From Candidatus Woesearchaeota archaeon (GTDB lineage: Archaea; Nanobdellota; Nanobdellia; Woesearchaeales; JBJKQO01): a DNA stretch of 64,000 bases. The notes beneath the pieces were generated by a model. The model was given only the letters and a program-made list of their open reading frames with translations. It had not been told where the DNA came from and ran no database searches. Where the stretch lies: NCBI GenBank assembly GCA_046705145.1, contig JBJKQO010000033.1:4023-68022 (forward strand), given 5' to 3'. Below are positions 28,553 through 59,826 of the stretch, in pieces. The stretch's first letter is position 1. The number at the start of each line of letters is the position of its first letter. Made by a program: the position numbers and the translations under genes.

Positions 28553-28622
28553 ACCTTTAAAACAACAAGTTTTAAATATCAAAAACCATCTCGCTTCTCA
28601 GATCAGAAAAAAAGGTTATTTA

Positions 28623-39174: not shown

Positions 39175-39280
39175 TGGACCCGGCGGGATTTTCACAATCC
39201 AAAGTATTGAACCCGCTGCCTTCCGCGTTCCGGTCTCAAGAAAAGCCAGGCGGACACTCTACCGATGAGCTACGGGCCCA
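39175..39280 (-). tRNA. tRNA-Ala(GGC) with two introns (anticodon loop and T-loop)
   Basis: Acceptor GGGCCCG/CGGGTCC with the G3:U70 Ala identity pair, D-arm GCTC-ATCGGTA-GAGT, anticodon stem TCCGC/GCGGA with loop CTGGC[16-nt intron]AC, and T-arm GCGGG-TTCAA[17-nt intron]AT-CCCGC. The A discriminator is followed by CTTTTTTT. Confidence 0.6.
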
Positions 39281-42076: not shown

Positions 42077-43087
42077 TCACTCAAATATTCCTGCTATCTT
42101 CTCGCCACAAGACTTACACTTTCCTTTCCTGATGTTGTTTTCAGAGACAAAGAAACCCTCTCTTGATATCAGCTCCTTGCCGCATCTAGGGCACAGTGTA
42201 GATCTCTTAAGATCAGTTGGAACATTTCCAGGATAGACATATCTTAATCCTGCTTCTTTTCCTAGCTTTTGCGCAAGCCTGATCTTTTCAATAGGGGTGG
42301 GGGGGACATCGCCATATTTGTAGTGCGGATAGAACCTTGATATGTGCCAGGGGATATTTTTGTCATTTCCTGCTATAAACTCAGCGATCTTCCTAAGCTC
42401 ATCTTCTGAATCGTTCTTTTCAGGTATGATAAGGGTAGTTATCTCAACCCATATGCCCATGTCATGCATCCTTTTGATATTCTCAAGGACCGGCTTAAGC
42501 CTTCCGCCTATCACTTTTTTGTAGAACCCATCATCAAACGATTTAAGATCGACATTTGCAGCATCAACAAGGCCTTCTGCAAGACCTAAAGCCTGTTCTG
42601 ACATGAAACCGTTTGTCACTATCACATTTCTTATGCCCTCTTTTTTTGCTATCCTAGCAATATCAAGCATATACTCCCAAAAGACTGTAGGCTCAGTATA
42701 AGTGTAAGATATGCTTTCACAGCCATTTTCAACTGCCTCTTTCACTGCTGCCTCGGGAGGTATATTATCCCCCCTTATGATTCTCCCTGAAGCCTGAGAG
42801 ATATCGCTGTTCTGGCAGAATTCACATGAAAAATTGCATCCTACTGTAGCGATTGAATAAGACCTTGATCCAGGAAGGAAATGATAGAGGGGTTTCTTCT
42901 CGATAGGGTCTATTGCTCTTGAGACTGGCTTGCCATAAACGAGGCTGTAGAGCCTTCCCCCTTTGTTTTCCCTGACTGAACACCTGCCTATTTTCCCTTC
43001 TGGGATAAGACAAAAATGGCTGCAAAGCTCGCATTGTACAGAACTATCATTCAATTTCTTATATAGTATTGCTTCTTTCATAAGCAT
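42077..43087 (-). CDS. AmmeMemoRadiSam system radical SAM enzyme
   Basis: CELCSHFCLIPEGKIGRCSVREN...YG...DPIEKKPLYHF...GCNFSCEFCQN fits the PflA-like family. Confidence 0.7.
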   Translation of the reverse strand: MLMKEAILYKKLNDSSVQCELCSHFCLIPEGKIGRCSVRENKGGRLYSLVYGKPVSRAIDPIEKKPLYHFLPGSRSYSIATVGCNFSCEFCQNSDISQASGRIIRGDNIPPEAAVKEAVENGCESISYTYTEPTVFWEYMLDIARIAKKEGIRNVIVTNGFMSEQALGLAEGLVDAANVDLKSFDDGFYKKVIGGRLKPVLENIKRMHDMGIWVEITTLIIPEKNDSEDELRKIAEFIAGNDKNIPWHISRFYPHYKYGDVPPTPIEKIRLAQKLGKEAGLRYVYPGNVPTDLKRSTLCPRCGKELISREGFFVSENNIRKGKCKSCGEKIAGIFE

Positions 43088-43651: not shown

Positions 43652-46117
43652 ATGTTAGCGACTTTAAGGGCAGCAAGTATTAATTCTTTAGGTAGAAGGT
43701 CTGATGACCATCTCAGCCTTATTTTCAGCCTTACAAGAGGGCAGGAATCTGGAGGATCACTTGCTTCAGGAACACCAGGGATGAGGCGGCCGCAAGAGCA
43801 GACAATGCCTAAATTTGAAGAACCTTTAGATAACAAGGGTGTTTCGCACACAGTTGATGCAACTGAGATATCAGACCTTGTGATCCCTGAATTTTCAGGT
43901 ATTGCGGCAAAGGCCTATGACCTTAGCACAACAGCTATAAGCAAAAGCAAGACAAATGCTGTATCCTCAGACTACACATCAAATATCGTAAGGCAAGCTG
44001 TTTCTGACACTTTTGCCCCCTATGCCGGATTTGTTTCACTCGCTAGGCAGATGAACCTAGTTTTAGCATACACAAGCCTGCATGGTTACTCAGCTGTATT
44101 AGCAAACCCTTTAGAACTTAGCTATTCATCAAGCACAGCATATGCTCAAGCCTATGTGTATAATAAAATCTCCTATGAAACCGGATATCATACTCAATAT
44201 GAAGCAAGAACTGATATTCTTGCGCTTGCAATGGCAGAATATAGGCCTTATGTTATGGTTACAGGGCTAAATGAAGGGCTAGTTTCTGAAATGGCTTTTG
44301 AAAGCACATTCCAAAATGCATACGCAAGACCAATAGCCCAGAATTTTGAAGAGCTGGTTTCTGAGACAATTGATATAATAAGAGAAGGATTTCAGCCTGA
44401 ACAAGAGTACATCCCAGAATATGCCAGATCATATGCTGCTGAACTGGAACTGATGGTCGATGCTTTCGCAAGGCCAGAAGCCTTGGTCAGGGCAAGAGAA
44501 GCAGAACTCCTTTTGACTATCGAGTATGCTATGGGCAGGGTATTTGACAAAGCAATTGAGACTTTCACCCATGATGAATACACTCTTATCGAATCACTTG
44601 CGTACGAAAGCACAAAAGAGAACATCCAGGTTAATATTTTCCCAATAACTGAATTAAGTATTTTGGATAGGGTCATTCTTACGAACTTAGCTGCAACTGA
44701 TGATTACAGCCAGAATGATACTGAAACTGAATTAAGCCCTGATGTTCAGGAATTATCAAAAATATCATCTGATGCTGGTACTGCTTCAATAAACCTTACA
44801 TATTCAAATCCCTTATCTGAAGCAGCTGTAAAATTTAGGCACGCTGACTTTAAGCACAATGTTAGGAACGTCCCTATTAAGCTTGCTGAAAGGAAATACG
44901 ATAAACCACCAGAAAGGCTTGATGTGCCTTACTTCAAAAGAGAAGACTGCGACTGCGGCGTAAACGCCATATTGTTAAGCATGACTCAGATCAAAGAAAG
45001 GGAAGACTGCGACTGTGGAGTTACCCCTCAGCTAATAAGCTATTCCAAACTAAGGAATAAAGAAAATACTATTCCACTGTTCAACCGTAACCAACGAGAG
45101 GACTGCGACTGCGGCGTAACTGCACATTTTGAAAGGGGGCTTTTGCAGATCGATTATTCTGTCAACAAGCAGATGAAACATGCTATCAAGGCAAAGGATA
45201 AAAATGGGAATATCATAGATATAACTGGGCGAGCTAAAGGCACAGTTCTTGAAGAGATCGAACGGGTTCTTAGCGGGATGGGGTTAAGACCTGATTATCA
45301 TGAGTCCCAAGATGGAAATGGATTTTATATCAAAAGGATAAAGGGAGTCAATAACGTCGGTTACAGGGTCATCATCAGAAACAAGAATACCGGCGAACTC
45401 AGATATATCAAGCAGGGCATAGATTCTGAAAGATTCAATAAGGGACTTGAAGAAGTTATGATAGAATATGTTGGAAAGGGGGATATCAGGAAAGTTGACG
45501 ATTCTGTTTTAGACGGAAAGTATTTCAGGAAAGTAAGAGGGTGGCAGGGGAGCTATGCCCATGGCATCCGAGAGTTCGGATCATTTAAGGTGACGGCGGA
45601 GCAGGCTGCCGATAGTTCAGTGTATATCCTAGATATCCAGACAAAAGAAGGTGTAAAGAAACATTCTTTTATTGGAAACACCGCCGAAGCTTTAGTGCAC
45701 AAATACCTCGTAGAAAACGGATTTACTCCTGAATATAAAATACACCTAATTGAAGGCAAGCTTAAGCTCGAACTAAAAGACATCAAGGATGCAGCAGGAA
45801 ACAGCATAGCAAGAGATCATGATGATGCAGGATACATAATAGGCAAGATTGACGCATCAGGCCAAAGGTCTGAATTGCTTGATAATAATGGTATTAAGTC
45901 TTTAAGCGCCTGTGAATACCAAACAAAACAAGGGGATATCATATCATTGACTAGGATACTCCAGGGATTATTTGATATGGTGGATGTCAATGAAACATGT
46001 TACAAGCAAAGATATGGGGCTCCTATTCAGCAAAATAAGACTAATATTGTCAGGATGCCTTCCAGGACACAATCAAAACCTGTAGAAACAAGATATGATA
46101 TGGCTGTCGGATATTAA
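43652..46117 (+). CDS. large hypothetical protein with three REDCDCGV repeats
   Basis: 821 aa. KREDCDCGVNA, REDCDCGVTPQ and REDCDCGVTAH recur at intervals of about 22-35 aa. The N-terminal half is alpha-helical and Ala/Tyr/Glu-rich. Start uncertain. Confidence 0.5.
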   Translation: MLATLRAASINSLGRRSDDHLSLIFSLTRGQESGGSLASGTPGMRRPQEQTMPKFEEPLDNKGVSHTVDATEISDLVIPEFSGIAAKAYDLSTTAISKSKTNAVSSDYTSNIVRQAVSDTFAPYAGFVSLARQMNLVLAYTSLHGYSAVLANPLELSYSSSTAYAQAYVYNKISYETGYHTQYEARTDILALAMAEYRPYVMVTGLNEGLVSEMAFESTFQNAYARPIAQNFEELVSETIDIIREGFQPEQEYIPEYARSYAAELELMVDAFARPEALVRAREAELLLTIEYAMGRVFDKAIETFTHDEYTLIESLAYESTKENIQVNIFPITELSILDRVILTNLAATDDYSQNDTETELSPDVQELSKISSDAGTASINLTYSNPLSEAAVKFRHADFKHNVRNVPIKLAERKYDKPPERLDVPYFKREDCDCGVNAILLSMTQIKEREDCDCGVTPQLISYSKLRNKENTIPLFNRNQREDCDCGVTAHFERGLLQIDYSVNKQMKHAIKAKDKNGNIIDITGRAKGTVLEEIERVLSGMGLRPDYHESQDGNGFYIKRIKGVNNVGYRVIIRNKNTGELRYIKQGIDSERFNKGLEEVMIEYVGKGDIRKVDDSVLDGKYFRKVRGWQGSYAHGIREFGSFKVTAEQAADSSVYILDIQTKEGVKKHSFIGNTAEALVHKYLVENGFTPEYKIHLIEGKLKLELKDIKDAAGNSIARDHDDAGYIIGKIDASGQRSELLDNNGIKSLSACEYQTKQGDIISLTRILQGLFDMVDVNETCYKQRYGAPIQQNKTNIVRMPSRTQSKPVETRYDMAVGY

Positions 46118-46140
46118 AAGTAAAAAAAGTAAAAAAAAAC

Positions 46141-47046
46141 TTATTCTTCCTTCTTCTGGATGTCTACGACTTCTAAGTCAAACACTAGGGTCTTTCCTGC
46201 CATAGGATGATTAGTGTCTATGTAGAAGTTCTCATCATCGACAGAAGTCACCTTGACCACTTTTCCGTTTATGTTTACAGAGTCTCCAGGCCTTACTAAG
46301 AGTGTCAGCTTAACATCGTCTCCCTCTATACTCACATTAGAAGGCCCCATGTCAGTGCTTATGACTCCTCCAACAATCGGCATGTATCTTATCGTGAAAT
46401 GGGTGTCGTTTATGGCAGTTACCTCAGAAGGCCATGGCATCCCTGGCATTACAAATGTATCCCCTAGTTCAACTCTTGCTTTTACGACCACCCTTCCAGA
46501 TTCTACTTTCTCAACATCGTAAGACCATGGTGCTATCCCGCTTTTGACGATGCTCCCCTGTTTAGGCGTGGTATTAAACCCCTGCTCGAATGTAGCCTCA
46601 TCAAGATCTACTACAAAAGGTATGTACTTGTCCATCTTCGCGTATCTCACAAGAGGGAAGCTTCCTACCTTGTTCAGATCATATTCACCATAAGCTTCCT
46701 CAGGCGGTATCTCAACAGTCTTTTTCTGGCCTTTTTTCATGCCTAAGACCGCATCTGAAACCCCTTTGATTATGCCTGTGGACCCTGCAGTGAACTCAAG
46801 AGGTTCTGTCTTGAAGTTATGAAGCCCTGCATTTTGCCCGACATCAAGGTAATTGGTATCAAAGATTGTCCCGTTCTGGTACTTTCCGACATATTTTATG
46901 CTTACCTTATCCCCTTCTTCCACCTTTACGAAAGCAGAAGTGTTTGCCTTGACTATAAAAAAAGCGATGGCAATTATTATGACAACTGCTAAGAGTATGC
47001 CCAAGCCCACAAAAAGGCTTTTTTGCTTATTGTTTTCCTTGATCAT
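46141..47046 (-). CDS. membrane-anchored FKBP-type peptidyl-prolyl isomerase
   Basis: N-terminal TM helix, an FKBP domain (GDKVSIKYVGKYQNGTIFD...) and a SlyD-like C-terminal module (HPMAGKTLVFDLEVVDI). Confidence 0.7.
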   Translation of the reverse strand: MIKENNKQKSLFVGLGILLAVVIIIAIAFFIVKANTSAFVKVEEGDKVSIKYVGKYQNGTIFDTNYLDVGQNAGLHNFKTEPLEFTAGSTGIIKGVSDAVLGMKKGQKKTVEIPPEEAYGEYDLNKVGSFPLVRYAKMDKYIPFVVDLDEATFEQGFNTTPKQGSIVKSGIAPWSYDVEKVESGRVVVKARVELGDTFVMPGMPWPSEVTAINDTHFTIRYMPIVGGVISTDMGPSNVSIEGDDVKLTLLVRPGDSVNINGKVVKVTSVDDENFYIDTNHPMAGKTLVFDLEVVDIQKKEE

Positions 47047-47080
47047 ATTTACACCCCTTATTTTTTTATGAAGAACAAGC

Positions 47081-47353
47081 CTAAAGACCGAAGGTCTCCT
47101 GGAATTGCTTCATCTTCCGAAACTCACTGATAAAATTAAGCCCTTTCTCCTTTATTATCAGGTACTTGCTGTGCTTGCCTTCAACTTCAGCGACAAGCTC
47201 ATTTTTCATCAGGTCTTCAAGATATGTGTTCATAAGCTTATGAGAGAGATTGGCCTTGTACATCAGGTGGGTCGGCTTGATCTTCCCTCCTTTTTCCTGA
47301 ATGGAAGTAAGCATGTCCATTACTATCTCCATCCTCCCGCGTCTCTGGCTCAT
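47081..47353 (-). CDS. winged-helix DNA-binding protein
   Basis: 90 aa with a wHTH-like pattern. Overlaps the upstream membrane-protein gene by 4 nt. Confidence 0.45.
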   Translation of the reverse strand: MSQRRGRMEIVMDMLTSIQEKGGKIKPTHLMYKANLSHKLMNTYLEDLMKNELVAEVEGKHSKYLIIKEKGLNFISEFRKMKQFQETFGL

Positions 47354-48066
47354 GTTTTTGCCACCATCTTATAATAGACCACAGCAAGCGTGCTAAAACC
47401 TACAAGCTGGACTATCTCTGAGACCACATAAAGCATCTCAGGGTCGAAAACAGTGAAAATGAAAAGCACTTGGCTTAGGGTAAGGGCTGCAAATGAGAAC
47501 GCTACAAAAAGCGTGTTTGCATTCTTAAGCTTGGTGTAATTGTTTATCGAATGCCATGTGATAAGCAAGAGGAAAAGCGCTGAAGTCATGTAAAACAGGA
47601 AGTACATCTGGAAGGCAAGGAAGTACTGTGCTGTAGAAGCTGCCGCTATAAGCCCGCAAAAGTATGCGAAAAAGATTATCTTGTCCTTGTCTTTCGATTG
47701 GCTGACTATGTAGTATATGCCTGCAAGGCCCATCAGCATGACAAACCTGTAAAGGATAAGCCCTATAAGAGAGAATATGGGGTAAGGATAAAACGTCCTT
47801 ATCGCGTGCGATACAGTCCCCATGTCTACCTTCTCAAACACATGATAATACAGGTTTATGTTCATGGCTATCCTGATAAGGAAAGAGAATGACAGTGCTG
47901 CAAATGATATCCCGAAATACTTGTATTTTGCCTGTTTTGAGAACTTGTAGACCCTAAAGCTCAGGAAAGCCAAAAGAAGGGTCACTATAACTGAAACTGT
48001 CTCAAATCCGATCTCCAAACTAGAGAACCACCCCGGGCTAAAAGCTAGCTTAAGCATAATTGTCAA
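47350..48066 (-). CDS. polytopic membrane protein
   Basis: About 7 hydrophobic helices. Confidence 0.5.
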   Translation of the reverse strand: MTIMLKLAFSPGWFSSLEIGFETVSVIVTLLLAFLSFRVYKFSKQAKYKYFGISFAALSFSFLIRIAMNINLYYHVFEKVDMGTVSHAIRTFYPYPIFSLIGLILYRFVMLMGLAGIYYIVSQSKDKDKIIFFAYFCGLIAAASTAQYFLAFQMYFLFYMTSALFLLLITWHSINNYTKLKNANTLFVAFSFAALTLSQVLFIFTVFDPEMLYVVSEIVQLVGFSTLAVVYYKMVAKT

Positions 48067-48384
48067 CTACTGTTTTGTCCTTTATAAGCTTTGTGGAAAA
48101 TTAATCAGATTCGGCTTCTTTAACCTCTGTTCATAATGTATTTATAAAGGTTTTATCATAATAATGTGTATCAAGATCAAACACCTCAAACCTAACCTTG
48201 CTTTCCCGGAGCCTTCCGGGAGGCAATTATAATCAATCAAACACCTCAAACCCAAAAAAATGCATACTTGGCCTTCACCAAGCCAAGATGCAGTTTTTTA
48301 TTATACTCACCAAAACACCTCTTTGAACACACACCTTGCGTTTTTCCGCAATCCTTTAGGGGTTGCGGAAGGTTTTTCTTATCC

Positions 48385-48993
48385 TTATATATCCAAAAGG
48401 TTTGTACTATCATGAGTAACATATAGATCAAGTTTTTTTCCACTCTCTGAATTTTCTAGATTGACCCTTGTCCCGCCTAAACCTGCTGAGACACTTGCAA
48501 CAGAAACTTCCCTCCCGATATCACTCATATAAAGACCTGAATGCCTATCAAAAGTAAGGGTTACCTTTCCTTTTTCTCTTTCTGGAATCTTAGGTTTGAC
48601 CCTAAATCCCTGCTTGTACCCATCATATCCCTGACTGGCACCACACAACACTGTCCTATTCTGTAAGACTACACCCCAATTATCAAATAAGTACCCAAGA
48701 ATATCTTGTGCCACAACAGCACATCTTCTTACTTCATCAAACCCATGTTTTATCTGTCCAAGCGATGCTGAAAGATTTGTTATTGCATCTGGGTAAGCTC
48801 TCCATAGCAGATTATTTTTTGTTGTTACAACAGCAGATTCAGATTCCTTGGTATGTTTTAATAACTCTTCTAAGGGGTAAAGGCTACCATCAATCCTCAC
48901 CCTTATAGAGATATCAGTTATAGTATCATAACCTTCTCCATCCCCCCTATAAGGAAATGACAAACATTGTTCTATTATCATTTTTTCCCCCAT
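48385..48993 (-). CDS. hypothetical protein (third gene of a three-gene cluster)
   Basis: 202 aa, no known motif. Confidence 0.4.
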   Translation of the reverse strand: MGEKMIIEQCLSFPYRGDGEGYDTITDISIRVRIDGSLYPLEELLKHTKESESAVVTTKNNLLWRAYPDAITNLSASLGQIKHGFDEVRRCAVVAQDILGYLFDNWGVVLQNRTVLCGASQGYDGYKQGFRVKPKIPEREKGKVTLTFDRHSGLYMSDIGREVSVASVSAGLGGTRVNLENSESGKKLDLYVTHDSTNLLDI

Positions 48994-49041
48994 TTAAGCA
49001 TTTCATTATGCTGTGGAATCATTTTTTTATCAAAAATAAAC

Positions 49042-50088
49042 TTATTGGATCATTATTTCAATCCCATCCTGATGACGCTGAGGGTGATCATGTTTCACTC
49101 CCTTTTCATCTAATACTTTATAAGCCGGTTTAAGCAGGCCATCTAGAACAGATCCGATCTGGGCGGCAATACATTTCATATTTGCAAGAATTGTGGCTTT
49201 GTTTTTAGGTGATGAGTCCCTTAATGTATTTGCAGTTGAAAGATAGGTGGCATATAACCCCCACAGTTTTTCAAAACATGATGTATCAAGCTTAACTTCA
49301 ATTCTGGTTGGATCGGTATATATCTCATCAAGGTCATATCCTTGTTCAGGTCTTGCAAAACAGATTACTCTTCTGTTAGGCTCAACCCCATAAATATCCA
49401 TAACCCTCCTTTCTGAATCTGGATCAAATACCCTCAAGATGAATCTAGGTTGAGATCCTTCTTCAGCAGAATAAGACATTAGATATGTTGAGTTTAAGTT
49501 TCTTCTTATCATTTTTCCTCTTGTTACAAAGGGGTATGATATATGATGATCCTCTTTAGCCATTTTGTTTATTGCTCCTATCAAAGAGTCTAACATCTCT
49601 GAACCTGAATTCGCAATCACTATAGTGCCATCTAGTCTATGATATCCTATTAGATCTGGAGAAAGAAATTGACCTGTACTGATATCCACATTACAGGGAA
49701 CATCTTTAAAAGCTTCGGTGAGTTCATCGATTGTAGTTTCAGGACGCAGAAAAGACGCAGTAACAATGCCTGCATGAGAAGGATGTGTTCTTTGTTGCAC
49801 AATATAGGAACTTAGTTTTTCTGCGAGTCCGCCTTTAATATGAGATTTAGGCATCATATTTAGGAGGGAAGGATTTTTAAAATCAACATGCCAAACATCA
49901 ACAATTTCAGGATTGGGAGTGTCAACTAAAGGCAAACCATCTACCACCCTTACCTCCTGAATAATGTCTCCAAATTGATCCCAAAAGGTTCTAAAAACCC
50001 CATCTTCACACTTTAACAGTTTTCTCCTTAGTGTTGAATCATCAAAAAAAAATCCCGGCATGTATATTCTTGCTTGTCCTTCACTCAT
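49042..50088 (-). CDS. hypothetical protein (second gene of the cluster)
   Basis: 348 aa, no known motif. Confidence 0.4.
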   Translation of the reverse strand: MSEGQARIYMPGFFFDDSTLRRKLLKCEDGVFRTFWDQFGDIIQEVRVVDGLPLVDTPNPEIVDVWHVDFKNPSLLNMMPKSHIKGGLAEKLSSYIVQQRTHPSHAGIVTASFLRPETTIDELTEAFKDVPCNVDISTGQFLSPDLIGYHRLDGTIVIANSGSEMLDSLIGAINKMAKEDHHISYPFVTRGKMIRRNLNSTYLMSYSAEEGSQPRFILRVFDPDSERRVMDIYGVEPNRRVICFARPEQGYDLDEIYTDPTRIEVKLDTSCFEKLWGLYATYLSTANTLRDSSPKNKATILANMKCIAAQIGSVLDGLLKPAYKVLDEKGVKHDHPQRHQDGIEIMIQ

Positions 50089-50139
50089 GCTTATCCCCTC
50101 TCATAAGATATTTCTCTGAATGTGTCTCTTCTAACTAAT

Positions 50140-50706
50140 TTATCTGCCACATTTTGCTTCATCTAAAGTTATGGTTATAAGATTGGACTTTTGATTGTAG
50201 GGTAGATCAAGCGCTAGTACCGTAGGATGTATTCTTGAGTCAAATGCTTCAGCAATAAGCTGAGCTCCAGTATAAGGATCTAATTCTCCCTCTAGACCAA
50301 ACTCTCTTAATGCTTGATTTACTATAGCTGGGGAAGCAATGTAAATTTGTGCTTTTCTTGGTACAAACAAACTTCCGGGTTTTCTGACAATGGATTCTAT
50401 TTCAGAAGTCGCTAAATCGTTGGGTTTAGGCTTTGCAGTCACCAGCCCATTATAAACCGCCAATAAACACGCAAGATATTCCACAACTGCACCTTGACGA
50501 ACATTTAGTTCAGATCCTTCTTTTTCATAGGTAGTAGAGCATGTTTCGCAGTTGAACTCCAGAAGAGACAGACCCTGTATCAACCTTGTGCAACGTGCTA
50601 TCTCTAAAAATGTTTCACGCAATTCATCTTTAGGGATAGTAGTATCGGGTACTGCTATCATCCCAACATAAGCATTGATATTTGGCATTTCTGGTTCGCT
50701 CATTTT
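50140..50706 (-). CDS. hypothetical protein (first gene of the cluster)
   Basis: The likely start is MKMSEPEM at 50706. Confidence 0.4.
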   Translation of the reverse strand, partial: KMSEPEMPNINAYVGMIAVPDTTIPKDELRETFLEIARCTRLIQGLSLLEFNCETCSTTYEKEGSELNVRQGAVVEYLACLLAVYNGLVTAKPKPNDLATSEIESIVRKPGSLFVPRKAQIYIASPAIVNQALREFGLEGELDPYTGAQLIAEAFDSRIHPTVLALDLPYNQKSNLITITLDEAKCGR

Positions 50707-50820
50707 CATATCCCCCCAAAACCATTTCAAGATTATTATTTTAAAGTAGAAACACTTTTTCATATTTAAAGCCGCATTTGAAGATTTTTTGTAAAAAAGA
50801 ACTATTTAGGGGAGAAATAG

Positions 50821-51040
50821 GAATAACGCAAAGTCGCTAATTACCAATATGCTCGCCCTATCCCTTGCCTGAAGGTAGGGGTATTAGGGCTCGCACTAGT
50901 GTTAGCGACTTTGCGGAACAACAAAAATCGAAGATTTTTGTGTTCAATTAAAGCTTCGCTTTAATTTGAATAGGAAAGTCGAGCCTGTATCTACAACCTA
51001 AAGGAACTAGTATTAGGCTCGACTTTTCTATAAATCAAGA
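50821..51040. repeat. structured intergenic repeat, family A, copy 2
   Basis: The 5' module is closed by gtcgctaa...ttagcgac (compensatory relative to copy 1). The 3' hairpin aagtcgagcctgtatctacaacctaaaggaactagtattaggctcgactt is about 97% identical to copy 1. Confidence 0.6.
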
Positions 51041-51064
51041 AGATTTAAGTAAATTTAAATAGGA

Positions 51065-51718
51065 TCAGAGTCGATAACTCAATTCACACCAGTATGCAAT
51101 ATCTGCTAATGGCTTGATAACGGCGTTTATTCCGAATGTTTTAGCTATATTCTCCAGTTTGGTTATATTAAACTTTTCTGATTTCAGTCCAGCACTTAGT
51201 ACCCTGAAATTTTTATCACTACTGACAACTTCCATCCCATTAGCCTTGATGAAATCAACATATTCTCGCTCGCAAGAATCTGATAATACGCTTAAAATAA
51301 TCTTTCCAGAGGGATTAATCACCCTTAATGCTTCTGCCAAGATAGGATCCCTGTCGTCACCAAGGTTTGCAAAAAAGTTCCATAACATGACTACATAATC
51401 AAATGAACCATTGTCAAAAGGAAGGCTTAATGCGTTTCCACAAACATAATGGACAGATGGAATTTCATCTAAATTTTCTCTTGCCACAACCATCTTTTCA
51501 AGTAGGTAATCAACTCCTACTATCATATCTGGTGGATACGGGCATCCTAAGATGATGCCACCACTTCTTCCTGGCCCGCATCCCATGTCCAATACTTTCT
51601 TTCCTCTTAAATCATATGATTGTACGCGCTCTGCCTCAGCCCCTAAATACCTCTCAAATGGATGTGTCAAGATAAACTTCTCTTGGTCAGTACCCTGAAA
51701 AAATGATTTAATTGCCAT
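51065..51718 (-). CDS. class I SAM-dependent methyltransferase
   Basis: VLDMGCGPGRSGGII motif I. Confidence 0.7.
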   Translation of the reverse strand: MAIKSFFQGTDQEKFILTHPFERYLGAEAERVQSYDLRGKKVLDMGCGPGRSGGIILGCPYPPDMIVGVDYLLEKMVVARENLDEIPSVHYVCGNALSLPFDNGSFDYVVMLWNFFANLGDDRDPILAEALRVINPSGKIILSVLSDSCEREYVDFIKANGMEVVSSDKNFRVLSAGLKSEKFNITKLENIAKTFGINAVIKPLADIAYWCELSYRL

Positions 51719-52020
51719 TTAAAAGTGGTAAAATATGAAAAAATATTTAAAATATCCCCTTAATAAATTTGTAAAAAATCAAAAATTCAAGCTATTTTAG
51801 GAAAAATTGACACCATCATAGCAAGATCCTTAATGCAAAAACTCCAGAAAATAATTTAACCATTTCAAGCTTGTTTGATTTACTATTCCCCAAAATATAA
51901 GAAATCCCAATTTAATGTGATAGATCATACAAAACGCCTGAATAAATAAGGGGGACCAGCATATAATCTTCTTGGTCATATGTGTGCCCCACACTTGCCC
52001 CTTTGAAATCCCTGTTGACA

Positions 52021-52098
52021 CTATTCACAACGACATTCGCAATCTGCAGGGACCAACTCTTTTAGATCATATTGTTCCCTTGTTTTTTTCTTTTCCAT
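52021..52098 (-). CDS. micro-ORF P8 of the CECRxE family (MEKKKTREQYDLKELVPADCECRCE)
   Basis: 25 aa. GGAGGG Shine-Dalgarno sequence 6 nt upstream of ATG. The C-terminus DCECRCE-stop matches the family consensus. Confidence 0.4.
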   Translation of the reverse strand: MEKKKTREQYDLKELVPADCECRCE

Positions 52099-52647
52099 GA
52101 TTATCCCTCCTTGATTTTTATTAAAATCAGGATATTCCTATAATTATCCTATTTAGATAATAGTTTATTGAAATATTTAAAATAATATTATTAAAATTTT
52201 TGTACTTCCTAAAATATTTAACTAAATATTAAAAAAATTGAAATGAATCTAAAAAAAATATGGAAAAACTCAAAATATTGGTTATAAATTATAATATATA
52301 AAATATATTTCTCTCAATTTTTTTATAAAATCACTTATTAATAAATTTATAGGAAAAATACAAAATATATCTCAGTTTACACCCGTATATTTCACTAGTA
52401 ACTTTCAGCCTAAACATTAATCCATCCGAAAAAGAGAAAAGAAAAACCGAACCAAGCCCTGAGGGCAAGCATACTCGTTAACTTATTAGAAGGTTAAATA
52501 CATAAAATTATGTGTTTAATAAGTGTATTTTACTTTGCGAAAAGTAATGCTTTTATTATAAACAAGCAAACCCCTGGTTTGTACTATCTCTAGTTTAGTA
52601 ATTATGAGATTGAATTTTATTAAAATCCCACTATAACTTTGAAGGAT

Positions 52648-53514
52648 TTATTGTGCTGTAATCCTAGTTAATAAAACTGCTGAAACTAAGATTAAAATTA
52701 TTCCCCCTATCTGTAAAATATTAAATTTTTCATCTAAAACAAAGAATTCAAATAATGCGGTTATTGCAGGAACAGCAGATATCATTAAAGCAGCAATAGA
52801 CGGGCCCTCTAATTCAATTCCTTTGTAAAAAGTTATTACCCTCAATCCACTAAATATGCCTGAAAGTAATACCCATATAAAACCATATTTTATAGTAGAT
52901 AAACCCTCCATCCCTAAAAATGGGATTAAAAGCAGAAGAAATAATGCTCCAAATATATATCTTCCAACTACCATTGTCAAAGAATCCATCTTTTCCATGC
53001 CTTTTTTTGCATAAGAATTGCAGAACCCGCTTATAGGCACAGTCAGGAAAATAAGCCAATCTCCATTATTAGGCATCTGCATGAATCCTTTAGTTGTTAA
53101 CATAATCAAACCAAGTATCATCGTTACCATAACAGGATAAAAAATTTTAGGCATCTTTTCTCCCATAATTGAATATGCAAAAATAAGTGTAAACACAGGA
53201 TATAAACTCATAATAGCCCCTTTATTTGTTGCAGTAGTGTATTTTAATGCAGATATCATCAACACAACTCCTAATCCTGAAGCAAGTACACCTATAACTG
53301 CTATATACTTCACATGTTTCATATCAAATCTCAATGATGATTTTTTCCCTAAAGCTAGCCATACTGCCACAACAAAACATAAACTGAAAAATACTCTTAA
53401 GAACGAAAAGAGTGAAGGATCCACCCCTTTGCCTATACCAATTTTATCAAAGAGGTTAACAGAAGCAAAAGCAAAAATAGATATTAATAGATAGACTATT
53501 CCTTTTGTTTTCAT
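52648..53514 (-). CDS. EamA/DMT superfamily transporter
   Basis: Ten predicted TM helices arranged as two EamA-like repeats. Confidence 0.65.
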   Translation of the reverse strand: MKTKGIVYLLISIFAFASVNLFDKIGIGKGVDPSLFSFLRVFFSLCFVVAVWLALGKKSSLRFDMKHVKYIAVIGVLASGLGVVLMISALKYTTATNKGAIMSLYPVFTLIFAYSIMGEKMPKIFYPVMVTMILGLIMLTTKGFMQMPNNGDWLIFLTVPISGFCNSYAKKGMEKMDSLTMVVGRYIFGALFLLLLIPFLGMEGLSTIKYGFIWVLLSGIFSGLRVITFYKGIELEGPSIAALMISAVPAITALFEFFVLDEKFNILQIGGIILILVSAVLLTRITAQ

Positions 53515-53592
53515 TTTATTCAGGTTAAGGTTTATTACTTTTAGCTTAGTGAAGAGATAAGCTAGCCAAACAAAATTTATTAAGACAATAAC

Positions 53593-55641
53593 TCAACTGC
53601 ACAACCCATATTTCTTGCATGCAGTGTAGATACTTCCGACGGTGGACTCTGCCTCTGTTAAGGTTGAAAAATTTTTATCTCCTTTGAACAAAGAATATAA
53701 TTTTTCTGATATCTGCCCGAGAGAATAATACCCTTTAAAGAAGATAAGAAACTCAAAAAACTCTTTTGGAAGGTCTCTGAAAAAACAGGTATTTACCTTT
53801 ATAGCTTCACTTTTGTTTGGGGCATAAACATATCGATTTTCTTTTCCATTATAAAAAAGCATGATCTCCTTTTTTCTACTTGGATGGGCAGTTTTTTCTT
53901 TGTATTTCTCTTCTTTAGCATAAGAGATTGACGGACTCCCAAAAGAATCCACTAACCCCTCATCTTTTAGCTTCTGGATACAACGATCAACTTCAAGGTC
54001 AACAATCTCTTTATTACCATATAATCTTAGCAGTTTTTCTTTTATTTCACTTAATTCATAAGCCCCATCAAGATAATGTGCTATATCCGCCCTTAATGAC
54101 CTTATTAAAACCTTATCATCAACATCCGACGGCAGACTACCTAAAATTTCAATTGCATTGAGAATACTTTTTGGGTCGTTAAAAAAAGGGCTGTCACTAA
54201 CTGCTTGTTCCTGAAGCCCTACATCTCTCTGCCCCCTACCAAACTCTGTGCTTGGATATGCCAGGATCAGATAGCACATCGCTCTTAGCGCCCTTTCATT
54301 ATCCCACCCATACTTCCTGCAATCCTGCCTGAAATCAAGCTGGTTTAAAGTCCCTCTCATTATGATGCCTGTTTCTTCCCTCTCCTTAAACCTTTCTTGA
54401 GTGGGTATGATGTCTCTGCTAAGCGCTGGCTGGATGATAAAATCATGATTTTTTGATCCGATATCATTTAGCAGACAAAAGGTCTTCCTGCTTGATCTTG
54501 CCGATGATCCCGGATAACCCTCAATAAGGAAAAGCCTGCATGATATCCCTTCATTACCGATTATGTTCAGCGCATTGGCAGCCTTGTTTTCCGTACCTAT
54601 CTTATTCATGTTTTCAAGCACTACATCGTCGCTGCACTCAACTCCTATCCCTACCTCCTGACATCCTGCCTTTGCAAGGTACTCTGCAAACCTTTTTGTT
54701 ACCCTGTCAGACCGGGTATAGCACCTGAACCCGAATTCAGGATAGTCTTTTTTAAAAATTGAGACTTCAGAAAGAAAATCTTCTGTTTTCCCCATATTTA
54801 TCCCAAACGTTAGGTCTATTATATAGAATTTAGGAATACCCATGCTAAACATGTAACGGATCTCATTTAGAGTATTGCCAAAATCCCTTTCAACGTATGT
54901 TTTCTTTGCTGCACAAAACTCACACTGAAACGGGCATCCTTTAGCCAGCTCAACAAGTCCTAAAACGAACATATTTTTAGTTGAGCAATGTTCAATAATA
55001 TCCTTTATCAGGCCTGTCCTCTTGCCATATATCTGCTCAGGAGCCAAGTTGATTACTTCCTGTTTTTTTACTATTTCATTAACCTTAACTCCCTGTTTAT
55101 CCCTTAATAGTAAGCCTGGCATGGCTAGATCCTTTTTTCCTGCCTTTAAAGCATTTATAAAACCTGCCAGGTGATGATTTGATTCCCCTATCCAGGCATA
55201 GTCTATATTAGGGCAAAACTTGAAAATTCTATCCCTTAAATGAGTTATTGCCTGACCCCCAACGATTATCCTGCAATTTGGAAGCTTTTCCTTTATCTTA
55301 GTTGTCAAAAAATCTATGCTGTCTGTGTTTGCCTGCGCGATCAGGGTAGTCATCACAATATCAGGGCGCTCTTTCGCAATAAGGTCTATCAGTTCCATAT
55401 TTGACATTGAAGGATCTTTAAACCATTCATAATCAAGCAGTAGTAGATCAGATTGGATACCATAATGGTCAAGTATTGCTGTCACCTCAAATGGTATCCT
55501 TGGGAGAATGAAGTATCTATTTCCGATATTCTCTTTGACGTACCTGCCCTTTTCAGTGTGTTCAAGGGAGGTAGTGTTTGGCGGGTTTACAAAGATGACC
55601 TTCATTTTATCCTCTTGTATCATGATACCTACACATATCAC
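53593..55641 (-). CDS. B12-binding domain radical SAM protein (class B) with a ~250-aa C-terminal extension
   Basis: The N-terminal Rossmann-like region (MKVIFVNPP...IIVGGQAITH) resembles a cobalamin-binding domain. Radical SAM motif GCPFQCEFC. The likely start is 55605. Confidence 0.7.
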   Translation of the reverse strand: MICVGIMIQEDKMKVIFVNPPNTTSLEHTEKGRYVKENIGNRYFILPRIPFEVTAILDHYGIQSDLLLLDYEWFKDPSMSNMELIDLIAKERPDIVMTTLIAQANTDSIDFLTTKIKEKLPNCRIIVGGQAITHLRDRIFKFCPNIDYAWIGESNHHLAGFINALKAGKKDLAMPGLLLRDKQGVKVNEIVKKQEVINLAPEQIYGKRTGLIKDIIEHCSTKNMFVLGLVELAKGCPFQCEFCAAKKTYVERDFGNTLNEIRYMFSMGIPKFYIIDLTFGINMGKTEDFLSEVSIFKKDYPEFGFRCYTRSDRVTKRFAEYLAKAGCQEVGIGVECSDDVVLENMNKIGTENKAANALNIIGNEGISCRLFLIEGYPGSSARSSRKTFCLLNDIGSKNHDFIIQPALSRDIIPTQERFKEREETGIIMRGTLNQLDFRQDCRKYGWDNERALRAMCYLILAYPSTEFGRGQRDVGLQEQAVSDSPFFNDPKSILNAIEILGSLPSDVDDKVLIRSLRADIAHYLDGAYELSEIKEKLLRLYGNKEIVDLEVDRCIQKLKDEGLVDSFGSPSISYAKEEKYKEKTAHPSRKKEIMLFYNGKENRYVYAPNKSEAIKVNTCFFRDLPKEFFEFLIFFKGYYSLGQISEKLYSLFKGDKNFSTLTEAESTVGSIYTACKKYGLCS

Positions 55642-55726
55642 ACGAAATATTCATCCTACAGAAATCACCCCTTCTGAATCAAAAAAAATCCAAATTCAAT
55701 CAAACAATTTCGTTCATCATCTGATC

Positions 55727-55792
55727 CTACTCACATTTAGTCTCAAAATCAAACGATGCAATCTTCAAAATGCACCATTCATTATTACCCAT
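55727..55792 (-). CDS. micro-ORF P1 (MGNNEWCILKIASFDFETKCE), a truncated family member
   Basis: Shares NEWCIL-IAS with P2. A TAG replaces the Cys codon of the CEC motif. Its ATG lies 1 nt after the P2 stop. Confidence 0.3.
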   Translation of the reverse strand: MGNNEWCILKIASFDFETKCE

Positions 55793-55793
55793 A

Positions 55794-55862
55794 TTATTCC
55801 ATCCTGCACTCACAATTAAGCGATGCTATCCCTAAAATACACCATTCATTAATATTAACCAT
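55794..55862 (-). CDS. micro-ORF P2 (MVNINEWCILGIASLNCECRME)
   Basis: 22 aa with the conserved C-terminus NCECRME-stop. Tightly packed with P3 and P1 through GAATAAtATGG junctions. Confidence 0.4.
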   Translation of the reverse strand: MVNINEWCILGIASLNCECRME

Positions 55863-55863
55863 A

Positions 55864-55923
55864 TTATTCAATCCTGCACTCGCAATTGATTGTTTCAAGT
55901 TTTAACAGTTTTATTTCATCCAT
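55864..55923 (-). CDS. micro-ORF P3 (MDEIKLLKLETINCECRIE)
   Basis: 19 aa. GAGGTGG Shine-Dalgarno sequence 5 nt upstream. Conserved NCECRIE-stop. Confidence 0.4.
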   Translation of the reverse strand: MDEIKLLKLETINCECRIE

Positions 55924-55973
55924 TATTCCACCTCGGATATATTGGATTGTCAAAGACTCTATAGTCTTGTTTC

Positions 55974-56027
55974 TCATTCGAGCCTGCATTCACAGATGAC
56001 ATCTATTTTAGTTAGAGTTTGTTCCAT
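55974..56027 (-). CDS. micro-ORF P4 (MEQTLTKIDVICECRLE)
   Basis: 17 aa. AGGAG Shine-Dalgarno sequence 4 nt upstream. Conserved ICECRLE-stop. A hairpin aagactctatagtctt follows downstream. Confidence 0.4.
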   Translation of the reverse strand: MEQTLTKIDVICECRLE

Positions 56028-56156
56028 AGTCTCCTACCTCAACAGTATAGTTGCATTTAGATAGTCCTATAAGTGAATGATATATAATAAACTTGTTCCA
56101 TAAATTTTTGTAAAAACGCAAAATTTATATATCGAATAGGAATATCTTATATAATA

Positions 56157-57164
56157 ATGGCAGATCTAGATAAGATTGATATTAAACTACTGGCAATCCT
56201 GGAAGAAGATGGCAGACAATCCTTATCGCAGATAGCAAAAAAGCTCAATACTTCTCAACAGGTTGTCAGCTACAGGATCAAATCTCTTGAAAAAAGGAAT
56301 ATCATAGGAGGATATTATACATTCATAAATTTTCTAAGGCTAGGCTATACCAGTTTCAGGACGATGATATCATTCAGCAACATAAATAAAACCAAACATA
56401 AGGAGATCATCTCTTTTCTTATGGATCATCCGAACGTCCTTTGGCTTGTTGACTGCAGCGGAAGGTGGGACCTGATAATTAACTTTCTGGCAAAAAACAT
56501 CATCCAGTACGAATCGATGTTCAATGAGTTCAGAAAAATGTTTCCAGACCAGATCCAAAACTATGACATACTCCCAACAGTTGAAGTGTCTTATTTCGGA
56601 AGAGATTACATAATGAAAAAACATAGGGACCTCAGAAAGAGTTCACTTCTCGGAAAAGAGTACGGGACAGACAGCCTGGACTTACTAAACTATAACATCC
56701 TTAAGATGATCTCAAAAAATGCAAGAATCCCTGCAGTTGAGATAGCAAATAAGCTTAAAGTTAGCCCTAACACTGTAATCCTTCGGCTTAATGAGCTAAA
56801 AAGAACCGGCATGATACAAGGTTATACCACGCTACTTCATCTGGATTATACAGGTTATAGCAGTTACAAGGCATTAATAAAGATATTTAATACGACCGAA
56901 GAAAAGGAAAATGCAATAATCAATAACCTGAGGTCTAACGTGAATGTAGTTGGATTCGTGAAACTTGTAGGATCCTGGAACTTTGAGATAGAATTTGAAG
57001 TAGAAACAAATGAGCAGATGATTGAACTCACAAGAGATATTAGAGACCGGTTCAGGGACAATATCAAGGAATTTGAGATAATCCAACTGCTTCACGAGTA
57101 TAAGTATGACTTCTTTCCTGGAGACCTGCTGGAAGACAACCCTAAAAAAAGCAATAAAAAATAA
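56157..57164 (+). CDS. double-domain Lrp/AsnC-like regulator, array paralog 1
   Basis: DIKLLAILEEDGRQSLSQIAKKLNTSQQVVSYRIKSL and NILKMISKNARIPAVEIANKLKVSPNTVILRLNEL HTHs, each followed by a RAM-like domain. C-terminus LHEYKYDFFPGDLLE. Confidence 0.65.
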   Translation: MADLDKIDIKLLAILEEDGRQSLSQIAKKLNTSQQVVSYRIKSLEKRNIIGGYYTFINFLRLGYTSFRTMISFSNINKTKHKEIISFLMDHPNVLWLVDCSGRWDLIINFLAKNIIQYESMFNEFRKMFPDQIQNYDILPTVEVSYFGRDYIMKKHRDLRKSSLLGKEYGTDSLDLLNYNILKMISKNARIPAVEIANKLKVSPNTVILRLNELKRTGMIQGYTTLLHLDYTGYSSYKALIKIFNTTEEKENAIINNLRSNVNVVGFVKLVGSWNFEIEFEVETNEQMIELTRDIRDRFRDNIKEFEIIQLLHEYKYDFFPGDLLEDNPKKSNKK

Positions 57165-57174
57165 CAAGGATCAA

Positions 57175-57243
57175 TCATTCAACCCTGCATTCACAATTAT
57201 CAGTTTCGACAGGTTTTAACTCATAATAGTGTTCTTCGACCAT
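57175..57243 (-). CDS. micro-ORF P5 (MVEEHYYELKPVETDNCECRVE)
   Basis: 22 aa. GGAGGG Shine-Dalgarno sequence 8 nt upstream. Divergent from Lrp paralog 2; its stop lies 10 nt past the stop of paralog 1. Confidence 0.45.
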   Translation of the reverse strand: MVEEHYYELKPVETDNCECRVE

Positions 57244-57357
57244 TTTAGTTCCCTCCTAAGTTATAATAATGTATAACTTCGAGATTAATTAAAGTATACG
57301 CCATATTTTTTTGTTAAATCGAAATATTTATATATAATTATTATATACCACAAAAAT

Positions 57358-58365
57358 ATGGTAATACTTGATAAAACCGATTTAAAGTTATTGTCGGAAT
57401 TAGATGATGATGCAAGACAGACCGTTTCAAAGATAGCAAAAACCCTAAACACCTCACAACAGGTCATCAGTTTCCGAATTAACTCCCTAAAGAGGAAAGA
57501 GATCATAAGCGAATACTACTCAATAATTAATTTTACAAAGCTGGGTTACACAAGTTACAGGACAATGATACGCTTCAGCAACATAAACAAGCAAAAACAC
57601 CAAGAGATCATAAAATATTTAACAGATCATCCAAACGTGCTATGGCTCGTCGACTGTGGTGGAAGATGGGATCTCCTCGTTAACTTTTTGGCAAAAGATA
57701 TAAAACAATACAGCATCATGTTCAATTCTTTTAAGAGCAGATTCCCGCAGCAGATAAGAAATTATGATGTCTTGACCACAATCGATTTTGTCTATCCTGG
57801 AAGAGCCTATTTATTTGGGCGAAAACCTGATAAGCCTAACAGGCCTTATGTAGGGATAGAAAGAGAGAAAGTAACCCTAGACAACACAGACTTAAACATC
57901 CTAAAAATGATATCTGAGGATGCGAGGCTAAGTAGTGTGATAATAGGCAATCACTTGGGGATAAGCTCTAATACTGTTATGACCCGGATAAAAGAGATGG
58001 GGAAAAAAGGGGTTCTTCTTGGAGCAAAGCCCCTAATCCATCTCGAAAACACCCCTTACAGGGGATATAAGGCACTTATTAAGTTTCAGGACATAACAGA
58101 AGAAAAAGAAAAAAGCATCATAAGCTTCCTGATGGAATTCGAGAATATAGTCGGCATAATAAGGATGGTGGGGATGTGGGATTTTGAGTTAGAGATCGAG
58201 TCAGAAAAACAGGAGGATGTGGTCGATATGATGAGATCCCTTCGGGACAGGTTCCATGATGTGATAAAAGAGTTTGAGATGTTCCCTTTGTTTCACGAAT
58301 ATAAGTACAACTTCTTTCCCAGAGATCTGCTGGAAGAGCATTCTGGCGAAAATATAACAAAGTAA
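57358..58365 (+). CDS. double-domain Lrp/AsnC-like regulator, array paralog 2
   Basis: Same architecture as paralog 1, about 50% identical. C-terminus FHEYKYNFFPRDLLE. Confidence 0.65.
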   Translation: MVILDKTDLKLLSELDDDARQTVSKIAKTLNTSQQVISFRINSLKRKEIISEYYSIINFTKLGYTSYRTMIRFSNINKQKHQEIIKYLTDHPNVLWLVDCGGRWDLLVNFLAKDIKQYSIMFNSFKSRFPQQIRNYDVLTTIDFVYPGRAYLFGRKPDKPNRPYVGIEREKVTLDNTDLNILKMISEDARLSSVIIGNHLGISSNTVMTRIKEMGKKGVLLGAKPLIHLENTPYRGYKALIKFQDITEEKEKSIISFLMEFENIVGIIRMVGMWDFELEIESEKQEDVVDMMRSLRDRFHDVIKEFEMFPLFHEYKYNFFPRDLLEEHSGENITK

Positions 58366-58443
58366 CAAAAATAATAAGCCCTGATGTTTCTATCCGGGTT
58401 ATTGCGCAAAATATAATTCGTGTTCAAGCTGATTTAGGCAATA

Positions 58444-58512
58444 TCACTCCATCCTAGCTTCGCAATCATCAGGGTCTAATTCTTCCAATTTGAATTTTGT
58501 TTCTTCCTCCAT
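58444..58512 (-). CDS. micro-ORF P6 (MEEETKFKLEELDPDDCEARME)
   Basis: 22 aa. GGAGGT Shine-Dalgarno sequence 6 nt upstream. Variant C-terminus DCEARME-stop. Confidence 0.4.
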   Translation of the reverse strand: MEEETKFKLEELDPDDCEARME

Positions 58513-58637
58513 TTTATACCTCCAAGCAGGTTATACTGCTCATAGTATATAGTGACATGAAAAATAATAAAACCTGTATGTTATAATATTTGTAAAATAG
58601 GAAAATTTATATAATAAAAGAAAATATAACAAAAATT

Positions 58638-59636: not shown

Positions 59637-59642
59637 TCTCAT

Positions 59643-59705
59643 TTTATTCTGCCCTAGTCTCACAGGCATCAGGTTCTATTTTTTCGAATTCTTTGTTTTT
59701 TATCA
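59643..59705 (-). CDS. micro-ORF P7 (MIKNKEFEKIEPDACETRAE)
   Basis: 20 aa. GGAGGT Shine-Dalgarno sequence 7 nt upstream. Variant C-terminus ACETRAE-stop. Confidence 0.4.
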
Positions 59706-59826
59706 TTTTATAACCTCCTTATACATCTTCATCATAGTAAGTACTTTCAAAATTTATATAATTAATCACCATAATATTTTGTAAAATAACAAAATTTATA
59801 TAATATATCATCATAACACAATAAAT

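Follow-up and report, generated by a model that had tools for sequence, protein, structure and literature searches.

Three adjacent minus-strand genes of an archaeal chromosome, here named A, B and C, make up what we regard with moderate confidence as an accessory operon restricted to its lineage. Its most likely origin is lateral transfer from a donor of lower GC content. The genes lie in a 64,000-nucleotide stretch (the window) of contig JBJKQO010000033.1 from a Candidatus Woesearchaeota archaeon, and the cluster is ordinary genomic 'dark matter', not a recognizable defence system or mobile element. The genes and the two parts of B are as follows.

50140..50703, minus strand: gene A, 187 aa (P0003), an ORF and a database protein
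49042-50088, minus strand: gene B, 348 aa, an ORF
49609..50088, minus strand: gene B N-terminal domain (residues 1-160), the one segment of the cluster for which a relative was found
49042..49608, minus strand: gene B C-terminal half (residues 161-348), with no relative found
48385..48981, minus strand: gene C, 198 aa (P0002), an ORF and a database protein

The genes are co-directional, as an earlier note on this DNA had stated, and are separated by 51 and 60 nt. The coordinates proposed there for B were exact, whereas the starts of A (50706) and C (48993) had to be corrected to 50703 and 48981. Position 50706 is a Lys codon, with ATGs at 50709 and 50703 instead; the start at 50703 gives the 187-aa P0003 and has a GGGGGG run 8 nt upstream. 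In C, an internal ATG (end 48981), preceded by GGGGG at 6 nt, fits the 198-aa database protein and 48993 does not. A G-rich ribosome-binding site thus stands 5-8 nt before each of the three starts. At 187-348 codons the ORFs are long for DNA of 38% GC, they show GC1 > GC2 > GC3 periodicity, and their codon scores are +0.09 to +0.16 in frame against -0.20 to -0.28 in the best other frames (A, +0.09, next-best frame -0.28; C, +0.16, next-best frame -0.20). Because of these properties, and because the N-terminal domain of B is conserved in a protein of another archaeon (P0009, below), we conclude that A, B and C are real genes. Each was predicted by gene callers on two assemblies, and pieces of an independent assembly of run SRR31309759 match the region at 100% identity, interrupted only by gaps of 1 nt and 20 nt. 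That the ORFs are non-genic, or pieces of one decayed gene, is highly improbable. Their lack of homologues, codon scores 1-1.6 SD under the window mean and low structure-prediction confidence would agree with such a view, but it does not account for ORFs of this length in AT-rich DNA, for in-frame scores that clearly beat all five other frames, for an ATG with its own G-rich site in each ORF, for their being called in both assemblies, or for a B N-terminal domain conserved from the N-terminus on, at 34-36% identity, in an independent genome.

Scans of Pfam, NCBIfam, PADLOC and PHROGs assigned A, B and C to no family, and phmmer and profile searches against PDB sequences gave no match below E = 0.2, in agreement with the earlier statement that the three proteins show no recognizable motif. 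In a word-indexed homologue search of 5.8 billion clusters each protein matched only itself. No match was obtained by tblastn of the cluster proteins against phage and plasmid records, and none came from viral contigs, for which A, C, the B alignment, P0009 and the MutS-like protein described below served as patterns, or from metagenome contigs scanned with the B alignment. No paralogues were found within the window. To make remote relatives easier to find, the search space was kept small: 71 loci of related archaea, 572 kb in total, that surround double-AsnC homologues; no relatives were found there either. Orphan genes are common in the window: about a third of the ORFs checked had no family match, so the cluster is no outlier against this background.

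An exhaustive HMMER search of 1.84 billion representative proteins with B as query returned one partial relative, the 175-aa P0009. It aligns with residues 37-160 of B at 36% identity (E = 2.6e-5, exhaustive phmmer) and with residues 5-159 at 34% identity (E = 3e-15, pairwise BLASTP), and the alignment reveals the N-terminal motifs RIY.PG.F and VWHV.F in both. P0009 is a stand-alone protein that lacks the C-terminal 190 residues of B. We propose that B is a two-domain protein; in a low-confidence model of residues 161-348, two long helices come after a beta-rich region. A PD-(D/E)xK reading of DVWHVDFK in B was dropped, the Lys being Glu in P0009. The P0009 gene is located on Logan contig SRR14803103_24814 (locus L004) from another archaeon and is followed, 12 nt on, by a gene for a 552-aa MutS-domain-V (MutS_V, ABC-type) ATPase, whereas the partners of B are A and C. 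The other proteins of L004 include no counterpart of A, B or C, and no MutS-like gene was found within the window. The association of P0009 with the ATPase is known from this single contig. L004 also carries a double-AsnC gene 59% identical to that of the window, which indicates that the two organisms are related.

The proteins contain no hydrophobic 19-mer above 1.63 and are therefore taken to be soluble. That of gene A is acidic (pI 4.8) with a CxxC at residues 52-55; the gene C protein has a pI of 5.8. Single-sequence AlphaFold models were unusable, with pLDDT values of 38-39 (38.2 for the AF2 model of C).

The earlier note had seen the cluster as bounded by repeats on both sides. The flanks contain the following features, the promoter elements being read from sequence.

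50810..51064, minus strand: four-hairpin array that separates the operon promoter from the methyltransferase stop codon (51065)
50826-50916: long hairpin in the array
50970-51031: repeated hairpin in the array
50704..50809, minus strand: putative promoter and 5' leader of the operon
50770-50763 (TTTAAATA) and 50745-50737 (TTTAAAATA), minus strand: TATA-like boxes
50717-50712, minus strand: GGGGGG ribosome-binding site of gene A
48254..48372, minus strand: gene C 3' region, with terminator-like sites
48342-48372, minus strand: hairpin just past the gene C stop codon
48267-48287, minus strand: hairpin followed by T7 at 48260-48254, the likely transcript end
48140..48252, minus strand: putative promoter region of the next operon
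48176-48192 and 48236-48252: 17-nt exact direct repeats, either side of a GC hairpin
48148-48140, minus strand: TATA-like TTTATAAAT
47350-48057 and 47081-47353: next operon, a membrane protein and an HTH_45 regulator

Both elements described on the downstream side are present. There are exactly two copies of the 17-mer ATCAAACACCTCAAACC (48176 and 48236), where 0.03 are expected by chance, and the hairpins reported for 48060-48380 are seen in 48058-48384 (fold z = -2.6) together with terminator-like sites. The direct repeats may have an operator role for the membrane-protein/HTH_45 operon. We could not confirm that the cluster is a unit enclosed by its repeats: 48058-48384 and 50704-51064 have no sequence in common, as direct or inverted repeat, and the upstream hairpins recur at other gene 3' ends, which argues that the flanks are not element ends. 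The upstream array, which contains exact 14-nt inverted arms, has a fold energy of -91.7 kcal/mol (z = -10.1). One of its hairpins has a 97% copy at 10463-10528, a similar array also follows the stop of gene 10541-11125, and the core GTATTA[C/G]GGCTCG is common to 10425 and 50881. The hairpin family is a general feature of gene 3' ends and not a module border. It resembles REP-like and MITE-like palindromic repeats in consisting of near-perfect hairpins of 60-90 nt, with several copies per genome, that cluster directly after stop codons (51065 and 10541) and are very stable (z = -8 to -10). It differs from them in that we saw neither target-site duplications nor transposase-related ends at the window hairpins and in that the family is seen here as four hairpins at two sites in this window alone. 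Rfam gave no match for 47900-51200 at a relaxed threshold. The flanking repeats gave the cluster the look of a bounded module; they are actually ordinary hairpin and promoter-region features.

The GC3 of A, B and C is 0.27 each against a window median of 0.46 (ranks 4-6 from the lowest among 59 genes), which suggests lateral acquisition, although low GC3 could instead reflect low expression or fast evolution. The adjoining methyltransferase (0.33) and EamA (0.25) genes are low as well, as are other family-less ORFs of the window. The accessory status proposed earlier is supported by this atypical GC3 and by the lack of orthologues, in the databases and in the 572 kb of related loci, bar the one distant partial relative of B. 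Syntenic orthologues, the sign of a conserved housekeeping operon that had been named beforehand as evidence against an accessory cluster, were not found, with the caveat that the lineage is poorly sampled. The only syntenic unit in relatives is the neighbouring B12-radical-SAM/double-AsnC pair, beyond which the genes differ at every locus, and the metagenome loci of relatives have diverged too far to compare the cluster interval by synteny. At the 90% identity level, each of the ten neighbouring proteins checked was either missing or a singleton, and a GTDB-wide scan for the flanking FKBP gene yielded at best 32% identity (in an unrelated MAG). With a lineage sampled this poorly, the 'orphan' status of A, B and C is partly a sampling effect. 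Breaks of Logan contigs at the cluster edges were considered as a presence/absence polymorphism and rejected, since breaks also fall inside genes (43676, 54085); the pieces at the edges abut within 1 nt and 20 nt and give no sign of polymorphism.

We weighed several other explanations against an accessory operon. The cluster might be the remnant of an integrated virus or plasmid bordered by the flanking repeats; its orphan gene content and low GC3 would suit this, and a major class of archaeal dark matter consists of integrated elements (PMC4158269). We nevertheless consider it unlikely. The ORFs scanned from 37.6 to 64 kb encode FKBP, HTH_45, methyltransferase, EamA, radical SAM, TatD, HAD, HIT and AsnC-type regulator proteins or have no match; no integrase, transposase or replication gene was found among them, nor a capsid-like gene among the scanned neighbours. 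No PHROG, phage, plasmid or viral-contig match was obtained, the borders have no common direct or inverted repeat, and the only tRNA gene (39175-39279) is 9 kb from the cluster. The chances of a new anti-virus system in a defence island appear similarly small. Such a system would be in keeping with the narrow distribution, atypical composition and operon layout of the cluster, with the pairing of the B relative with an ABC-type (MutS_V) ATPase and with the enrichment of defence systems in archaeal dark-matter islands (PMC4158269). PADLOC (PADLOC-DB v2) also gave a weak Cas6a match to residues 26-85 of B (60 residues, 15 bits, E = 0.0037), but this match is absent in P0009, which has a 13-residue gap in that stretch, and A and C matched no model. 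Cas6/RAMP endoribonuclease was rejected as the identity of B, the match being partial at 15 bits with no cas gene among the scanned neighbours; a repeat scan of the whole window showed no CRISPR-like array. Neither the three cluster proteins nor P0009 and the MutS-like protein of L004 have a credible match to a defence model, and nothing resembling a nuclease, ATPase, TIR or SIR2 motif was detected. Neighbouring genes match defence models through generic domains only and without partner genes (the methyltransferase to mad2, TatD to QatD, the AmmeMemoRadiSam radical SAM to pVip), and none is a known defence gene. The suggestion of a defence-island-like module, for which a PADLOC run had been recommended as a check, is therefore not upheld.

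A little less probable still, in our judgement, is that the cluster forms the tail of a small-molecule or RiPP-like locus ordered B12-radical SAM, EamA exporter, 25-aa Cys-rich peptide, SAM methyltransferase and A-B-C, in which A, B and C would be novel tailoring or scaffold proteins. The whole block is minus-strand and fits into 7.3 kb, its GC3 is 0.25-0.38 throughout, and the EamA-family transporter and SAM methyltransferase adjoin. The radical SAM belongs to a class-B methyltransferase type with relatives among the RiPP and phosphinate methylases, and the candidate 25-aa ORF (52021-52098) ends in DCECRCE and has a GGAGGG ribosome-binding site. However, the small ORF is a candidate only, the radical SAM scores far under every curated cut-off, and A is set apart from the methyltransferase gene by 255 nt of hairpin array as well as a separate promoter region. 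The co-occurrence of peptide and enzyme is not kept in relatives, where the radical SAM is retained with an AsnC-type regulator and not with the block genes or a similar peptide.

Under the accessory-operon reading, the donor of A-B-C could have been, for example, a mobile element or virus of lower GC content. Transcription would probably begin at a TATA-type promoter a short way ahead of A and end at the hairpin and T7 about 125 nt past C, and each cistron would use a G-rich Shine-Dalgarno site of its own for translation. This would yield three cytosolic proteins, all acidic, of 21, 39 and 22 kDa, which probably act together. Both flanks would lie outside the module: upstream, a member of a presumed genome-wide 3'-end hairpin family; downstream, the putative terminator of C and the promoter/operator region of the membrane-protein/HTH_45 operon. 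The B-C gap holds a T5 run and a TATA-like stretch, so gene C could have its own promoter. From the position of P0009 beside a MutS-domain-V ATPase we would guess, tentatively and with more doubt than belief, at a nucleic-acid-associated role for the module or one in host/mobile-element conflict. Gene context also permits a bolder proposal, which we think rather improbable: A, B and C would found three new families, either in a hitherto unknown host/mobile-element conflict module with the N-terminal domain of B as an adaptor that, in other archaea, recruits a MutS-type ABC ATPase, or as Cys-rich-peptide tailoring proteins acting with the B12-radical SAM, methyltransferase and EamA exporter.

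Archaeal 'dark matter islands' bring together ORFans that evolve fast and have a narrow distribution (Makarova et al., 2014, PMC4158269; reviewed in PMC6393860). The A-B-C cluster resembles them in that its genes are contiguous, co-directional, family-less, atypical in composition and located in an archaeal chromosome, with no or very narrow distribution, and in that it adjoins other family-less genes (for an 821-aa protein and a 235-aa membrane protein). It differs in being very small (three genes, 2.3 kb) and in lacking the hallmarks by which islands could be classified in that study, for instance integrases, defence domains, and membrane or secretory proteins; its three products are soluble. 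At present the cluster mainly shows how poorly its archaeal lineage is sampled. If real and functional, it would add three unrelated protein families to archaeal dark matter, and one of these, the N-terminal domain of B, offers a concrete lead in that it recurs beside a MutS-like ATPase.

Open reading frame calls confirmed the three minus-strand genes that the earlier note had described.

50140-50703, minus strand: gene A
49042-50088, minus strand: gene B (348 aa)
48385-48981, minus strand: gene C

The proposed limits of B were exact, whereas the starts of A and C had to be corrected. Position 50706, the former start of A, is a Lys codon with ATGs at 50709 and 50703; the latter matches a 187-aa database protein and has GGGGGG 8 nt before it. 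The database protein for C (198 aa) fits an internal ATG (end coordinate 48981) with GGGGG 6 nt before, and GAGGGG is found 5 nt ahead of the B ATG. Codon log-odds, with the remaining genes of the window as training set, were +0.09, +0.09 and +0.16 in frame, whereas the other five frames all scored below zero (best −0.20 to −0.28 for A, B and C); the in-frame scores lie 1–1.6 SD under the window mean (0.29). The three also show the GC1 > GC2 > GC3 periodicity expected of coding DNA. On codon score, GC periodicity and further lines of evidence, A, B and C are real genes; their products are all acidic and have no transmembrane segments. In an independent assembly of run SRR31309759 from Logan, the region was recovered at 100% identity as three pieces abutting in the expected order (43676-48305, 48307-50956 and 50977-54085). 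Its breaks are uninformative as element borders, because the same assembly also breaks inside genes. Since the intergenic gaps are 51 and 60 nt and the first has no long T-run, the simplest reading is an operon. Given a T5 run 3′ of the B stop codon, some transcripts could end before C, or C could have its own promoter.

The window comes from an archaeal chromosome. It carries genes for a thermosome subunit, TruD, ScpA, hydrogenase and ferredoxin subunits, GAPDH, PGK and an HTH_45 regulator, together with a 105-nt tRNA gene (39175-39279, minus strand) that matched Rfam (45.5 bits) without detection by ARAGORN and is thus consistent with an archaeal intron-containing tRNA. In a look-up among about 15 billion proteins, eight of ten neighbouring proteins were singletons at 90% identity and the exact queried form of the other two was absent; all ten are encoded on one NCBI contig of 70.6 kb. 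The best match of the flanking FKBP protein among GTDB species representatives was 32% identical. The singletons and this distant match therefore indicate that the lineage is poorly sampled. Among the ORFs scanned, those without any family match include an 821-aa protein, a 235-aa membrane protein and ORFs at 5045, 8262, 8695, 10541, 13571, 61813 and 62877. The family-less share, in which some ORFs may be spurious, makes up about one third of the ORFs checked, in agreement with published archaeal figures (PMC6393860; PMC4158269). A window of this size would at that rate be expected to contain about one run of three such genes.

The 821-aa protein (43652-46117, plus strand; unmatched in Pfam, NCBIfam, PHROGs and PADLOC) has the motif REDCDCGV three times in about 70 residues. 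Across the six reading frames of the window, DC[DE]C is found just four times, three of them in this protein and one in a 25-aa ORF (52021-52098, minus strand; MEKKKTREQYDLKELVPADCECRCE), which a GGAGGG ribosome-binding site precedes by 7 nt. This ORF lies in an AT-rich, non-coding spacer (51719-52647; 930 bp, roughly 27% GC) between SAM methyltransferase and EamA transporter genes. A class-B B12 radical SAM gene is 1.5 kb away, and the ORF could encode a RiPP-like precursor peptide.

Searches of A, B and C against Pfam, NCBIfam, PADLOC and PHROGs at permissive thresholds gave a single match, of B to Cas6a in PADLOC (15 bits, 60 residues). Each protein matched only itself among 5.8 billion clusters; PDB sequence searches, tblastn against phages and plasmids, and scans of viral and metagenome contigs gave no match. 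Exhaustive HMMER with B (1.84 billion representatives) found one further protein, P0009 (175 aa; E = 2.6e-5), which from its N-terminus onward aligns to B residues 5–159 at 34% identity. We rejected the Cas6a identity because P0009, the sole homologue, gives no Cas6a match and has a gap there. Because the stand-alone P0009 matches only residues 5–159, B is a two-domain protein whose N-domain occurs alone elsewhere. The P0009 contig (SRR14803103_24814; 4.4 kb, 28% GC) is archaeal, and its P0009 gene is divergent from a double-AsnC gene 59% identical to the paralogues of the window; the two organisms are therefore related. On this contig, P0009 is followed after 12 nt by a gene for a 552-aa ATPase (2077-4275 for the pair). 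MutS domain V (ABC ATPase) is its sole domain, the N-terminal region of ~350 residues being family-less. It matched no PADLOC model, and neither the window nor the other loci showed a counterpart.

The earlier note had the cluster bracketed by repeats, which was not borne out: the two flanks have no sequence in common, and for that reason att sites and terminal inverted repeats are excluded. Read in the direction of transcription, the downstream flank (48058-48384) has:

a hairpin just past the C stop codon
a terminator-like hairpin, then T7 in the coding strand
an exact 17-nt direct repeat in two copies (60 nt apart), one on either side of a GC hairpin
a TATA-like box about 85 nt ahead of the start of a membrane-protein/HTH_45 operon

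The 17-nt repeat (2 found, 0.03 expected) plausibly provides operator sites for that operon. The upstream flank is one of two arrays, each right after the stop codon of a minus-strand gene:

50810-51064: four consecutive hairpins directly 3′ of the methyltransferase stop codon (fold z = −10.1)
10380-10540: a similar array directly 3′ of the stop of gene 10541-11125 (z = −8.4)

The second array includes, at 10463-10528, a 97% copy of hairpin 50970-51031, and a second hairpin pair has a common core, GTATTA[C/G]GGCTCG. The hairpins, which are very stable, are a dispersed family at the 3′ ends of genes, without an Rfam match, and could be genome-specific REP-like elements that act as 3′ stabilisers or terminators.

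Other repeats occur in the window. Inverted copies of about 165 nt (14173-14339 and 28407-28573; 79–86% identity, 14 kb apart) span the 5′ ends of ORFs 13571-14284 (minus) and 28491-29003 (plus) together with the sequence upstream of them, and look like paralogous gene starts with common leaders. Close to where ORFs 16333-17022 and 23064-23735 begin, there is a direct repeat with copies 6.6 kb apart (16266-16416 and 22891-22997; identity up to 96% in a stretch of 53 nt).

The suggestion that the cluster is accessory stands. GC3 is 0.27 in each of A, B and C, ranks 4–6 from the lowest of 59 genes (median 0.46); left-hand neighbours have 0.46–0.62, and right-hand ones are low as well (methyltransferase 0.33, EamA 0.25). 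The values for A, B and C are consistent with lateral transfer from a donor of lower GC. Rapid evolution or weak expression is a possible alternative cause, and other family-less ORFs of the window also have low GC3. Through the conserved double-AsnC family we reached 71 related metagenome loci (572 kb), too distant to serve as a true empty-site test, and no relative of A, B or C turned up in them even at E = 1 in this small search space. The only syntenic part was the B12-radical-SAM/double-AsnC pair (7 loci). Because gene content beyond the radical SAM gene differs in all six loci compared, the cluster sits in a variable neighbourhood.

In the window the pair (53593-60822) comprises a 682-aa B12-binding radical SAM gene and, divergent to it, a double Lrp/AsnC-domain gene of ~330 aa, and is conserved in related contigs (L008, L010, L016, L017, L021 and L022) at 38–50% and ~53–61% identity respectively. 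The double-AsnC gene is amplified to four paralogues in tandem (56157-60822), and two paralogues that are more distant lie at 33984-36500. Between the radical SAM gene and the first paralogue, two overlapping tandem direct repeats (55742-55887; about 67–70 nt, 80–91% identity) may be regulator binding sites.

A defence island, as proposed earlier, was not supported: no integrase, transposase, cas gene or known defence gene turned up among the neighbours scanned, and their PADLOC matches are to generic domains only. One neighbour (42077-43087) is an AmmeMemoRadiSam-type radical SAM enzyme, above the curated cut-off. With no accepted PADLOC match for A, B or C either, a defence system proper is improbable. 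We consider a virus or plasmid remnant similarly improbable, given the negative phage, plasmid and viral searches. That A-B-C works in a neighbouring peptide or small-molecule pathway also seems improbable. The most probable of these readings, though still unlikely, is a conflict or nucleic-acid role; the sole functional lead is the link of the B N-domain to a MutS-type ATPase on one other contig. A, B and C are genuine and most simply read as an orphan operon of an ordinary kind, probably acquired laterally.
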